Below are positions 7,588-12,371 of a stretch of DNA of 25,861 bases, piece after piece (the stretch's first letter is position 1; each line of letters starts with the position of its first letter). The notes below the pieces were generated by a model, which worked only from the letters and a program-made list of their open reading frames with translations, had not been told where the DNA came from and searched no databases. A program made the position numbers and the translations under genes. This DNA is from Bacillota bacterium (GTDB taxonomy: Bacteria > Bacillota > Sulfobacillia > JAJZIM01 > JAJZBP01): assembly GCA_021798855.1 (NCBI GenBank), contig JAJZBP010000002.1, positions 1-25,861 on the forward strand. Direction: 5' to 3'.

Positions 7588-7919
7588 TGGACGAGCGGAT
7601 GGGGGAGTTGCTGTCTCTATCCGAAAGATTGGAGGAAGCTCTTGCCGCCAAGGAATGGGGGAAAGCCGCTGAATTTTTGCGCTCCAGGGAGGATCTCTTG
7701 GACGGGTTGATGGAAAGCGGTTACCTTCCGGCCAACGACGACGAGGAGGCGTTGAGGGTTGCCGTGGCGGCGGACCAGCGTGGTAGGGAGACCCTGAGCG
7801 CGCAACTGGCCGAGTTGGAGGATAAAATTGGGAGATTGCAGGATATGAAGAAGCTTTTGCTTGAATTGCAGAGAATTGGAAGTGACCAGGGCGGCGCCTT
7901 TTTTGATCAAAGGGGTTAG
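7587..7919 (+). CDS. FliT-like flagellar chaperone
   Basis: 110-aa helical protein with a W...L.SREDLL pattern and C-terminal FFDQRG, similar to Bacillota FliT ends. Overlaps the flgN stop (TGATG). Confidence 0.6.
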   Translation: MDERMGELLSLSERLEEALAAKEWGKAAEFLRSREDLLDGLMESGYLPANDDEEALRVAVAADQRGRETLSAQLAELEDKIGRLQDMKKLLLELQRIGSDQGGAFFDQRG

Positions 7920-7998
7920 GGGAAACGGACAGGTTGGGGGGCGGGAATGGATGGGGGACGTGAGTGAACGCGATGCCTGTTCCGGACCCGCGACCGCC

Positions 7999-8502
7999 AT
8001 GGCTAAAAGATTGACCTCCGGTTTCGACCGTACTCTGGATCTGAATGGTTCCGGCCATCGTTTACGTGAATTACGCGAAAAACGAAATAGCCTGGAGGAA
8101 CAACTTATCGCCGGGATTTCCCTGCTCCGGGGCTCTTTGGTGAGCCAGTTTAAGACCTGCGGCAAGAAAAACTGCCATTGCCAAAACGGCAAAAAGCATG
8201 GGCCCTTTACGTATTTGTCCCTGCGGGTGGCCGGCAGGACCAAGATGCTGTTCATACGGGAGGCCGACCGTGCCGAAGTCGAGGAATTGGTGGGTAACTA
8301 CCGCGACTTCCGGCGGGTCAAGGCGGAATTGGCCGGCTTGAACCGCGAAATCTCCCGGCTGCTGGACGGAGTGGAAGCCGCCCGCCTGTGCGGGGGCGAG
8401 GCCTTGTTCCTCCAACAAGCGTCTCGTCCCCAGCGGTTCATGGTTGGCGCGGAAGGAACGGATTCCGGCGGGCGAAGTGAACAAAAAAGACGACTGACTT
8501 AG
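7999..8502 (+). CDS. DUF6788-like protein with a Cys/His cluster
   Basis: LRGSL...CGKKNCHCQNGKKHGPFTYLS...GRTK motif, recalled as DUF6788. Start uncertain (7951, 7960 or 7999). Confidence 0.7.
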   Translation: MAKRLTSGFDRTLDLNGSGHRLRELREKRNSLEEQLIAGISLLRGSLVSQFKTCGKKNCHCQNGKKHGPFTYLSLRVAGRTKMLFIREADRAEVEELVGNYRDFRRVKAELAGLNREISRLLDGVEAARLCGGEALFLQQASRPQRFMVGAEGTDSGGRSEQKRRLT

Positions 8503-8566: not shown

Positions 8567-8592
8567 GCCCCCGCGAGGGGTTATTTTATTTT
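8567..8592 (+). terminator. Weak intrinsic terminator candidate downstream of the DUF6788 gene
   Basis: CCCC-GCGA-GGGG (4-bp stem, GNRA loop) followed by TTATTTTATTTT. Confidence 0.4.
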
Positions 8593-8648
8593 CCAAACGC
8601 CAGGGCCAAAGCCTCTCGGCCGGCCGGGCGGCTTGGGCGTCCAACGTT

Positions 8649-8911
8649 TTCGCCAAGGGAGACGCAGGTTCGCGCCCGGAGTCATCCGTTACGCCAGCCT
8701 TCCTGCTCGAGCGACAATTCGACAGTAAAGCCGGAATGACTTCGACAAAAGAAAAAAGCCGACGGGGATAATTAACAGGGAGCAGCCTTGTCCCGATGCT
8801 TATCAACAGAATTATCAACCGTTTCAACAGAAAAACTATCCACAACCGAAAAGTTATCCACAACCGGAGAAGAACATTGGTGGTTTATTCGACAAAGAAG
8901 AAGATTCGCCA
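8649..8911 (-). promoter_or_regulatory. Cluster of five Spo0A (0A) boxes
   Basis: TTCGACA (= TGTCGAA on minus) at 8718-8724, 8741-8747 and 8888-8894. TTCGCCA (= TGGCGAA) at 8649-8655 and 8905-8911. All fit TGNCGAA in the same orientation. Confidence 0.65.
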
Positions 8912-9094
8912 TTGTCCGAGTAATCCTTCGCTCGGCGGAACATGGGCACCCGGAAACTTGAAAACGCAAGGTCGCCGTCCGAGCCGGACGGAAGAGTGGG
9001 GGGCGAGCCTGCGGGAGGTTTGGAAAGTTTGGAAGCCGGAGGAGGATTTGCCGGGGAGGTTGGGGAATTAAATCAAGCCGCCTGCTCCTGTTAA
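8772..9094. repeat. Imperfect inverted repeat pair enclosing the DnaA boxes
   Basis: TTAACAGGGAGCAG (8772-8785) versus CTGCTCCTGTTAA (9082-9094): 13 matches with one indel. CTTG (8787-8790) / CAAG (9074-9077) extends the pairing. Confidence 0.5.
8800..8862 (+). promoter_or_regulatory. DnaA-box cluster
   Basis: TTATCAACA (8800-8808), TTATCAACC (8812-8820), degenerate GTTTCAACA (8821-8829), CTATCCACA (8836-8844) and perfect TTATCCACA (8854-8862). The last two sit in an 18-bp tandem repeat (8831-8866). Confidence 0.8.
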
Positions 9095-9195
9095 AAGACC
9101 GAGAAATTGTTCAAGCTTGTGGAGACAAACAAAATGTCCCGGCGGTTCCCATTGCGGTCCCAAAAGGTCGGAGGCATTAAAGGAGGATGGAGAAG

Positions 9196-9726
9196 ATGGA
9201 GATCGTGATCCACGGACGGAACCTGGACTTGACCGACGCCATCCGCCGGCATACGGGCGATAAATTGCGCAAGATGGAGAAATATTTGGGGAACGTGGTG
9301 GTGCAATTGGCCCTGGGAGTGGAAAAAGAACGGCACCGGGCCGAAATAACGGTCGGTTTCCACGGGCTGACGCTCCGCGCGGAGGAGGAAACGGGTGACC
9401 TCTATGCCTCCATTGACGGGGCGGTCAAGGTGCTGGAGGGGCAAATCCGGCGCCACCGGGACAAAATAGCCGCAAGGATCCGTCATGGAGGCGGGAAGGA
9501 ATTACAGCCTTTTTGGCGGCAGAAGGCGGGAGAGCCGGAAGATTCCGAGAAAGTGGTGCGGCATAAACGTTTTTCCCTGAAACTGATGGTGGTGGATGAG
9601 GCCATCTTGCAATTGAACCTGCTGGGTCACGATTTTTATGTTTTTGCCAACGCCGAAACCCAGCGGATCAATGTGCTCTACCGGCGTAAAAGCGGTGATT
9701 ACGGACTGCTCGAACCGGAACTGTAA
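9196..9726 (+). CDS. hpf: Long-form ribosome hibernation promoting factor
   Basis: GRNLDLTDAIR, DLYASID and the C-terminal EAILQLNLLGHDFYVF...NVLYRRKSGDYGLLEP domain. ATG 9196 is 9 nt after SD AAAGGAGG. Confidence 0.96.
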   Translation: MEIVIHGRNLDLTDAIRRHTGDKLRKMEKYLGNVVVQLALGVEKERHRAEITVGFHGLTLRAEEETGDLYASIDGAVKVLEGQIRRHRDKIAARIRHGGGKELQPFWRQKAGEPEDSEKVVRHKRFSLKLMVVDEAILQLNLLGHDFYVFANAETQRINVLYRRKSGDYGLLEPEL

Positions 9727-9821: not shown

Positions 9822-9854
9822 GCTCCTTTGGATGAGCAGAAAGAGGGTTTTGAC

Positions 9855-12371
9855 GTGCTCAAATTCTTGAGCAACGTATTTCTGGGCAATTACAACGAAA
9901 AGGAAATTAAGCGCCTGCGCCGCCGGTTGGAAGCGGTCAACGCCCGGGAAGGGGAGACCGCGGCGCTGGATGACGGGGCTTTGCGAGCCAAGACCGGTGA
10001 ATTCCGGGGGCGCCTCGAACGGGGCGAAACCACGGATGAACTTCTGCCCGAGGCGTTCGCCGTGGCCAGGGAAGCGGCGCGGCGAACCCTGCAAATGCGG
10101 CACTTTGACGTTCAGGTGATCGGCGGGTTGGTGCTCCATGAAGGGCGGGTGGCGGAGATGGCCACCGGGGAGGGCAAGACGCTGGTGGCCACCTTGCCGG
10201 CATACCTGAACGCCTTAACCGGGAAAGGGGTGCACGTCGTCACCGTCAACGATTACCTGGCCAGCCGAGACAGCGAGTGGATGGGCCGGATTTACGCTTA
10301 CCTTGGTTTGTCCGTCGGACTGAACGTGCACGGCCTCGACTACCCACAAAAGGTGGAAGCCTATGCTGCCGACATAACCTACGGGACGAACAACGAGTTC
10401 GGCTTCGACTACCTGCGGGACAATATGGTGCTGCGCCCGGAGGAGATGGTGCAGCGGAATCTCCACTACGCCATCATCGACGAAGTGGATTCCATCCTGA
10501 TCGACGAGGCTCGAACTCCATTGATCATTTCCGGGCCGGGAGAGCGTTCCAGCGCCTTTTATCAGAGTTTCGCCCGGATCGTACCGCGGTTGGTCGCGGA
10601 GAAGGACTTCACCGTTGATGAGAAAAATCACGCCGTGGCTCCCACCGAGGAGGGGGTTGCGAAGGTGGAAAAAATGATCGGGGTGAAGAACCTCTACGCC
10701 AACCGGGCCCAGGACCTGTCCCACTACCTGCTCCAGTCGCTGAAGGCTCACGTTTTGATGAAGCGGGACCGGGATTACGTGGTCAAGGACAATCAGGTGA
10801 TCATCGTGGACGAATTTACCGGCAGGCTCATGTTCGGGCGGCGCTATTCGGACGGCCTGCACCAGGCCATAGAGGCCAAGGAAGGGGTCAAGGTCGAGGA
10901 GGAAAGTCAAACCCTGGCCACGATCACCTTTCAAAATTACTTCCGGATGTACGAGAAACTGGCCGGGATGACGGGAACGGCGGTCACCGAGGAGGAGGAA
11001 TTCCGCAAGATCTACGGGATGGATACGCTGGTGATCCCGACCAACAAGCCCCTGATCCGCAAGTATGAGCCGGACGCCGGTGATATAACGGAGACCGCCA
11101 ATTTCAGCTCGGCGGAGGGGGACATTGTCGAGTGCGACAGGCGGGGACAACCGGGTTTGGTGGGCACGATTTCCATTGAAAAATCGGAGCGGCTGTCGCG
11201 GATGCTCTCCCAGCGGGGGGTAACCCACGAGGTGTTGAACGCCAAGTACCACGAGCGGGAGGCCCAGATCGTCAGCCGGGCGGGGCAAAAGGGGGCGGTC
11301 ACCATCGCCACCAACATGGCCGGACGAGGGACGGACATCGTCTTGGGGGATGGCGTGGCGGATCTGGGTGGCCTGCGGATCATCGGCACCGAAAGGCACG
11401 AAAGCCGACGGATCGACAACCAGCTCCGGGGACGCGCCGGACGCCAGGGGGATCCCGGAGTCTCCCGGTTCTACCTTTCCCTGGAGGACGATCTGATGCG
11501 CATCTTCGGGGGAGACAACGTGAAAGGTCTGATGGATCGATTTGGTTTGGAGGAGGACCAGCCGCTGGAATCCGGCCTTTTGACCAGGACCATCGAAGGC
11601 AGCCAGAGAAAAGTGGAAAACCGGAACTTCGACCTGCGCAAGCACGTTCTGGAATACGACGATGTGATCAATACCCAGCGCGAGATCATTTACGCCGAGC
11701 GACGCCGCGTGCTGCGGGAGGAAAATCTGCGGGATCAGGTGATGGACATGGTGGGACAACTGATCGGCGATCTGGTGGCTTCCCATTGTCCGGACAAGGT
11801 CCATCCCGAGGAGTGGGACATCGACGGCCTATTGCGCGGTATGGAGGCCCACTTTCTGCATCCGGGCAGGGTGGAAGCTTCGCGGCTTGCCGGTAAGACC
11901 AGGGAGGAGATCGAGGAATTACTTTTGGGGATAGCCGAGGAATTGTACGCCGAAAGGGAGAAAACCCTGGGTCCGGAGATGATGCGCGAATTGGAGCGCG
12001 TTTTGCTCCTGCGGACGGTCGACAGCAAGTGGATCGAACACCTGGACGGCATGGATGAACTGCGGGACGGGATCGGCCTGCGGGCCTACGGCCAGCGGGA
12101 TCCCCTGGTGGAATACAAGCGCGAGGCCTACGATATGTTCCAGGAACTGGTCCAGGCGATTCGCAATGATGTCTCCCGGCTTATCTATCAGGTCGATGTG
12201 GTGGTTGAACAGCCGGAGGCTCCCCGGCAGGTCTTCGAGAACCTGGGAGGGGAAGTGAGTCCGGCCATTCCGGCCCGGGCGACGCCGACGGTCAAGGTGG
12301 GGCGAAACGATCCCTGCCCTTGCGGCAGTGGCGTCAAGTACAAGAAATGCCACGGTCGCGAGGCCGGATGA
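9855..12371 (+). CDS. secA: Preprotein translocase ATPase SecA
   Basis: [62 protein letters not shown] and the C-terminal zinc motif [22 protein letters not shown] 9855 follows SD AAGAGGG. Confidence 0.99.

Follow-up and report, generated by a model that had tools for sequence, protein, structure and literature searches.

A candidate DnaA- and Spo0A-box element upstream of hpf in a member of the Bacillota

Described DnaA-box clusters and replication–sporulation devices

The replication–sporulation devices of B. subtilis include Sda, SirA and the Spo0A boxes in oriC. For the B. subtilis DnaA-box clusters (DBCs), two roles have been proposed, titration of DnaA and control of the genes beside them (2012, PMC3245932; Smith and Grossman 2015, PMC4447404), and one of them, DBC[gcp-ydiF], is experimentally bound by DnaA (PMC3245932, PMC4447404). 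The locus described here resembles these DBCs in having several closely spaced DnaA boxes in an intergenic spacer outside oriC, and its triple-box core also occurs in many Bacillota at the tsaD (gcp) 3′ end, where DBC[gcp-ydiF] is located in B. subtilis. Unlike the B. subtilis DBCs, the present cluster lies upstream of csp-hpf-secA and is accompanied by Spo0A boxes (0A boxes) at fixed offsets. We found no mention of such offset Spo0A boxes at B. subtilis DBCs in the accessible text of PMC3245932 and PMC4447404 or in the literature searched. None of 269 regions bound by DnaA in vitro in B. subtilis is near yvyD, fliT or secA. Similarly, our literature search returned no description of a csp-hpf DnaA-box cluster or of Spo0A boxes at a non-origin cluster, and no paper that links DnaA boxes to csp or yvyD, or to 0A boxes at a site other than oriC. 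B. subtilis does not have a cluster at csp-hpf, which could explain this lack of description.

Three other systems are close enough to warrant comparison. At B. subtilis oriC, binding of Spo0A~P affects chromosome copy number at sporulation (reviewed by Jameson and Wilkinson 2017, PMC5295017). Both there and here, Spo0A and DnaA boxes with similar consensus sequences share one short stretch of DNA; however, at oriC, the origin proper, the boxes partly overlap, which allows competition for binding, whereas in the present element the Spo0A boxes flank the DnaA boxes without overlap, there is neither an unwinding element nor a GC-skew switch, and dnaA is distant (as judged from relatives). The sda promoter is comparable in that a DnaA-box cluster couples replication status to sporulation entry. 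The DnaA-activated sda checkpoint blocks Spo0A phosphorylation, whereas the coupling proposed here would be direct: the two proteins would share a DNA element, and no kinase inhibitor would act between them. Finally, datA and DARS of E. coli are likewise origin-distal DnaA-box clusters of fixed geometry, which modulate the pool of initiation-active DnaA, but they belong to a different phylum, differ in box arrangement and depend on IHF and Fis. The second protein proposed to act on the present element is a developmental regulator.

The spacer upstream of hpf and its boxes

The window (the whole stretch of DNA analysed, 25,861 bp) is an entire contig (C40) of a metagenome-assembled genome recovered from a mine drainage metagenome. 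The assembly is 2.15 Mb in 312 contigs, is 84% complete and has a 62% GC content. The lineage is isolated: the nearest Hpf proteins, which are from metagenome relatives, are about 49-50% identical, and no match to an identical hpf product is on record. As hpf relatives are at best 49% identical, nucleotide alignment is impossible; a comparison of the spacer DNA with 40 relatives gave no nucleotide-level match, and an Rfam search of the whole window returned no family. The metatranscriptomes of the same mine drainage study contain nothing from the locus.

The upstream neighbour of the spacer is a DUF6788 gene (7861-8502, assigned by domain search). An intrinsic-terminator-like hairpin followed by a T run (8567-8596, plus strand; stem 8567-8581) ends this gene and marks the left limit of the regulatory spacer. 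The first gene downstream is hpf (9187-9726, plus strand), which encodes a long-form ribosome hibernation factor with Ribosomal_S30AE and Ribosom_S30AE_C domains, and is followed by secA (9828-12371, SecA domains); spoIIID is located at 756-995 of the window. The spacer is locally A+T-rich, with a GC content of 36–50% compared to 62% for the genome. Positions 7800-8250, which take in the first (5′) half of the DUF6788 gene together with adjoining DNA, are also low in GC (48–53%, in a 62% GC genome), suggesting acquisition or remodelling of the DNA between the flagellar chaperone genes and the box cluster.

Small ORFs in the spacer (57, 91, 77, 141 and 50 aa) were rejected as genes, as they are not conserved and those of 91, 77 and 141 aa have no Pfam family. 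The DnaA boxes do read as Leu-Ser-Thr in one frame (the 57-aa frame, with LST repeats), but the variable box spacing in relatives breaks any such frame. The small unannotated product suggested in the initial sequence-only reading of this DNA is thus not supported in this genome; in relatives, the gene directly downstream of the cluster is an ordinary cspA-family gene, which is missing here.

All of the DnaA boxes are on the plus strand. Box TTATCAACA (8800-8808) is the anchor of a conserved triple and is found at position 0 in 76 of the 79 csp/hpf-type loci. It is followed by TTATCAACC (8812-8820; two mismatches) at the conserved +12 offset and by an abutting degenerate box, the weak GTTTCAACA (8821-8829), at the conserved +21 offset, matching the +21 peak of relatives. 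In an alternative model alignment, the third box is instead that at 8836, with a 15-nt insertion. This box, CTATCCACA (8836-8844; one mismatch), is at +36, and additional boxes occur in this range (+36 to +44) in some relatives. A perfect box, TTATCCACA (8854-8862), is located at +54 and is one of only 7 in the assembly. The boxes at 8800, 8836 and 8854 each have no more than one mismatch to TTATCCACA, giving at least three such boxes in a span of the order used to define a DBC (approximately 100–200 bp); those at 8812 and 8821 are weaker. Nowhere else in the whole assembly are three or more DnaA boxes of this quality (≤1 mismatch) clustered. By box content and position, the cluster is predicted to be a non-origin DBC bound by DnaA.

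The candidate Spo0A boxes are all on the minus strand. Perfect TGTCGAA boxes are found at 8718-8724 (-82 from the anchor; relatives have perfect boxes at -79/-80), 8741-8747 (-59, an offset shared by several relatives) and 8888-8894 (+88; three relatives of other families have a perfect box at +88/+89), the last two in the extended form TTTGTCGAA. Two TGGCGAA heptamers of the 0A type are also present. That at 8905-8911 is 17 bp from the +88 box, and one relative has, on the same side, a TTCGCCA/TTCGACA pair 11 bp apart (L098). That at 8649-8655 (-151) is weak, is in a GC-rich stretch apart from the other boxes and has no recurrent counterpart at this position in relatives; it is possibly a chance occurrence. 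Five heptamers matching TGNCGAA, three to the left and two to the right of the DnaA boxes, are thus present as first described, in an organism whose Spo0A has a canonical recognition helix (discussed below).

Strong Spo0A sites typically consist of tandem boxes 10-11 bp apart. The window's boxes do not have this arrangement (which is found at abrB), their spacings being 23 and 17 bp. The gaps between the Spo0A boxes and the DnaA boxes are 52 and 25 bp, without overlap, so that the layout is not that of direct competition for sites, one of the two modes first envisaged, as at B. subtilis oriC.

TGTCGAA occurs 158 times in the 2.15 Mb assembly (approximately once per 13.6 kb), making it rarer than the once per 8 kb originally assumed; TTTGTCGAA occurs 18 times, two of which are at this locus. 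This is the only place in the whole assembly where three or more TGTCGAA heptamers are found within 200 bp. In a simulation with 158 uniformly placed sites, three fell within 177 bp anywhere in the genome with P ~0.011. In windows of ≤50% GC, the density of TGTCGAA is 3.6 times the average, and the genome-wide P is then ~0.02, in keeping with the original argument that such proximity is unlikely by chance. TGGCGAA is far more common (540 copies in the genome), and the window's two copies alone are not significant. Across the assembly, a genome-wide motif scan gave no other locus where TGTCGAA or the DnaA box is clustered three or more times.

As anticipated from the presence of spoIIID, the genome encodes Spo0A (contig C256). 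When its C-terminal domain was aligned to that of the B. subtilis Spo0A–DNA complex (PDB 1LQ1), the recognition helix, SRVERAIRHAIEVAW, was identical. Two further loci serve to calibrate the motif in this genome: TTTGTCGAAAA is present just upstream of spo0A, and two TGTCGAA boxes 10 bp apart (L060 2072-2088) are found ~130 bp upstream of an 86-aa AbrB-type gene on contig C63 (MazE/SpoVT-AbrB domain; gene 2212-2472).

Between the boxes and hpf, no sigmaA promoter was found. A sigmaH-type promoter (AGGATTT, 15 nt, and GAAT within GGGAATTAA; 9043-9071, plus strand) is located 116 bp upstream of the hpf start codon and 130 bp beyond the last box, with a predicted transcription start near 9078. 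The motif AGGAnnn-N14/15-GAAT is found upstream of hpf in 16 of 29 relatives, mostly 50–66 bp before the start codon, and a stricter form (AGGAWWW-N11-15-GGAATW) has only 7 sites in the whole assembly. From these sequence matches, a dedicated stationary-phase promoter that is distinct from the box cluster probably serves hpf.

The Spo0A-activated spoIIG promoter has an over-long spacer. The arrangement at 8741-8774 of the window, where 21 nt separate the 0A box TTCGACA from a GATAAT downstream of it, resembles that promoter; this arrangement is not conserved in relatives and is a weak lead.

Conservation of the element in relatives and across Bacillota

The comparison of hpf upstream regions proposed in the sequence-only reading revealed that 16 of 29 class-level relatives have a co-oriented DnaA-box cluster 150–800 bp before hpf, in which the core TTATCAACA-N3-TTATCCACA-nTATCCACA recurs. 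A model (R1) was built purely from nucleotide sequence, using an alignment of the elements of 15 relatives with the window left out. R1 has matches in 119 of 151 class genomes, mostly as one strong copy each (E 1e-10 to 1e-22). Its sole match in this genome is within the window (C40:8774-8854; E 3e-6 when the window is the search space), and this copy scores low (21.5 bits, compared to 40–79 bits) because the upstream TCCACA/TTATCCCCA part is missing. The element is absent altogether from one order-level relative (G001). Another relative (G014) has two strong copies (contigs C143 and C86; E 8e-20 and 4e-17) as opposed to the usual single copy.

A wider scan with the pattern TTATCAACAGNNTTNNNCNCANNNNCCACA, using one genome per species, identified at least 120 loci, nearly all of which are in Bacillota (Syntrophomonadaceae, Thermincola, Clostridiaceae, Alkaliphilus, Paenibacillus, Brevibacillus and others). 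Among the matches listed, 53 have csp and/or hpf as a neighbour, 37 directly adjoin tsaD at its 3′ end and the other 30 are elsewhere. At 79 csp/hpf-type loci, 280 DnaA boxes are co-oriented and 20 are opposite, with peaks at -31, 0, +12, +21 and +44. The identical triple DnaA-box core is found at tsaD-type loci in Syntrophomonadaceae, Thermincola, Brevibacillus and Ornithinibacillus (for example, L122 6203-6232). Because tsaD is gcp, this group matches the position of B. subtilis DBC[gcp-ydiF]. The gcp-ydiF cluster appears to be an ancient, widely conserved element, and the tsaD match supports, by analogy, the interpretation of the triple box as a probable true DnaA docking module. Based on these similarities, 8718-8911 would be this genome's copy of an ancient single-copy, origin-distal DBC that heads csp-hpf-secA in many Bacillota.

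At the 30 best loci, a cspA-family gene is directly downstream of the element in 24, with hpf after csp in most of those. Five of the 30 are like the window in that they have no csp and hpf is directly downstream. The csp genes of relatives have a strong sigmaA promoter. While most class relatives have csp after the cluster, tblastn detected neither a csp gene nor a remnant in this 84%-complete assembly.

The Spo0A heptamers are also conserved. In 107 non-identical loci, 51 perfect heptamers are found between -130 and +160 of the anchor compared to 2.5 expected (approximately 20-fold enrichment), the expected number being taken from the remainder of the same loci. Most are oriented as in the window (37, versus 14 opposite), and four control heptamers of the same composition are not enriched (0–3 per flank). 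TTCGACA matches inside the csp genes of relatives are coding (VEFDIV) and were left out of these counts. As related loci are not independent, P values are overstated. In the pattern-defined sample, which was chosen independently of the 0A heptamers, 22 of the 53 csp/hpf-type loci among the matches listed (~40%) have a perfect 0A box, with 27 boxes compared to 1.4 expected; the corresponding figures, also among the matches listed, are 5/37 for tsaD-type loci and 6/30 for other loci. In the 30 class loci, 10 of 12 families include a member with a perfect box, as does the window's own family.

These heptamers recur at particular offsets: -92, -80, -68, -59 and -48 (a phase of ~11 bp) on one side, and +67/69, +82/89 and +100 on the other. 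The offsets from -68 to -48 fall inside the R1 span and so are partly selected for in the class loci; the other offsets, and the pattern sample, are unselected. The window's perfect boxes at -82, -59 and +88 compare to recurring offsets of -80, -59 and +89. The distance between the anchor and the csp -35 varies from 49 to 1032 bp while the 0A box offsets stay constant, indicating that the heptamers are tied in position to the DnaA boxes rather than to the promoter. The DnaA/Spo0A box pairing first noticed in this single window is therefore conserved and positionally fixed in many families. The new part is the Spo0A component, here quantified and fixed in position, in a class for which a search of 151 genomes found no Sda.

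The element was described from the outset as non-origin, and the evidence agrees. GC skew is positive over 1–22 kb on both sides of the element, with no switch. As dnaA is absent from this 84%-complete assembly, the distance between the two was read from three complete relatives with dnaA at position 1, in which the element's coordinates are 142 kb, 179 kb and, in a 3.47-Mb genome, 2.79 Mb (~0.7 Mb away). Neither dnaA nor dnaN is within 8 kb at any of the 80 pattern loci listed, and the sequence following the DnaA boxes is GC-rich in relatives. An oriC was rejected based on GC skew, the lack of an unwinding element in relatives and the distance from dnaA. An sda-type checkpoint promoter was also rejected: there is no Sda downstream, the local small ORFs have no family, and Sda (PF08970) was found neither in this genome nor in 150 class relatives (151 in total), with a positive B. 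subtilis control.

No rep or transposase gene is beside the element (its neighbours are the DUF6788 gene and hpf), and there is no second copy of the spacer in the genome beyond a 31-nt GC-rich match. A mobile element bounded by a TTAA inverted repeat was rejected: a second copy is lacking, and the conserved element reaches further left than that boundary. An imperfect inverted repeat, TTAACAGGGAGCAGCC and its near-complement (8772-8787 / 9080-9094), brackets the DnaA boxes and the hpf promoter; it has no second copy in the genome, and its boundaries differ from those of the conserved element.

Possible functions of the element

Because the spacing of the Spo0A boxes is constant relative to the DnaA boxes but not to any promoter, we take the unit to be an autonomous docking platform for DnaA and Spo0A. 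ATP-DnaA would form a co-oriented oligomer on its boxes, as at the B. subtilis DBCs, and rising Spo0A~P would bind the flanking boxes. By stabilising or capping the oligomer, Spo0A~P would change the amount of DnaA held, such that sporulation entry would feed back on free DnaA. A second, local output may affect adjacent stationary-phase genes: csp in relatives and, in this genome where csp has been lost, the sigmaH-driven hpf. We consider the chances of this composite reading, including its local csp/hpf output, to be about even, and are less confident in the direction of the Spo0A~P effect on the DnaA held. Deletions of single DBCs in B. subtilis have little effect on initiation, so any titration role may be weak. 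A bolder version is doubtful: in spore-forming Bacillota that lack Sda, a single origin-distal site would couple replication and sporulation directly, with Spo0A~P beside the DnaA oligomer trapping or releasing the initiator at the onset of sporulation, setting chromosome copy number and switching the csp/hpf dormancy genes.

The main alternative, possible if on the whole rather unlikely, is that this is an ordinary upstream regulatory region, where DnaA and Spo0A~P are only transcription factors for csp/hpf and have no role in replication or DnaA availability. Transcriptional regulation by DnaA is known from sda, ywlC, yydA and dnaA. The element is upstream of and co-oriented with csp even in the one family where hpf is inverted to the other side; in approximately one third of loci, the last DnaA box is ~20 bp from the csp -35 (anchor to -35, 49–55 bp), and the higher frequency of 0A boxes at csp/hpf-type than at tsaD-type loci, among the matches listed, is also in line with such a role. 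This explanation is, however, harder to reconcile with offsets that remain fixed to the DnaA boxes across the full range of promoter distances, with the Paenibacillus element, which is flipped relative to csp, and with the absence of both csp and its promoter from this genome, where the nearest promoter (the sigmaH-type promoter at 9043) is too far past the last box for the usual geometry of Spo0A activation.

The TTCGACA heptamers might instead be low-affinity DnaA sites, forming a phased, co-oriented array that extends the ATP-DnaA oligomer as do the low-affinity arrays of E. coli oriC. We consider this to be quite unlikely, although the ~11-bp phase of the upstream offsets, the co-orientation of most heptamers with the strong boxes and the mutual resemblance of the 0A and DnaA consensus sequences (PMC5295017) would all fit such an array. 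Many relatives keep just a CGACA or TGACA core, and members of family f8 are mostly without a perfect 0A box although most have spo0A; genomes without spo0A are too few to serve as a control, and f8 lacks perfect heptamers whether or not spo0A is found. Against this, what is enriched matches the canonical 0A heptamer exactly, frequently in its extended version, and differs from the DnaA box at 4 of 9 positions. In this genome, that heptamer is also found upstream of abrB and spo0A, and the 14 boxes in the opposite orientation would be unusable by a DnaA filament that extends in one direction.

The last alternative, that these are chance A+T-rich words in an A+T-rich spacer (or, as minor variants, a small coding ORF, a mobile element or a plasmid-type iteron origin), is very improbable: the low GC content of the spacer, the raised heptamer density of such DNA, the LST frame and the inverted repeat that can be drawn around the boxes could each be cited for it, but the locus is unique in the genome for both motifs, orthologous geometry is found in more than 100 genomes without enrichment of control heptamers, the ORFs lack Pfam families and a constant frame, and there is no second copy, GC-skew switch or, in relatives, nearby dnaA, such that chance, coding repeat, iteron origin and mobile element are essentially excluded.

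The DnaA/Spo0A docking platform, if correctly read, bears on how spore-formers outside Bacillaceae tie sporulation entry to the replication cycle. It is a compact, single-copy unit of ~200 bp, found in many families with DnaA and Spo0A boxes at fixed relative positions, and is a candidate replication–sporulation link in spore-formers without a known Sda checkpoint. The element lengthens the short list of non-origin DnaA-box clusters by one that is widely conserved and found at csp-hpf, a locus linked to growth arrest; it is also present in cultivable genera such as Paenibacillus and Alkaliphilus.

Two other sites in this genome have closely spaced 0A boxes. On contig C57 (L057 2044-2063), the extended boxes TTTGTCGAAAA and TTGTCGAA are 13 bp apart, with no confidently called gene nearby. 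On contig C275 (L055 2062-2078), two TGTCGAA boxes 10 bp apart are found 26 bp upstream of a 431-aa gene of the phage integrase family, a locus that may represent a Spo0A-controlled prophage or excisable element.
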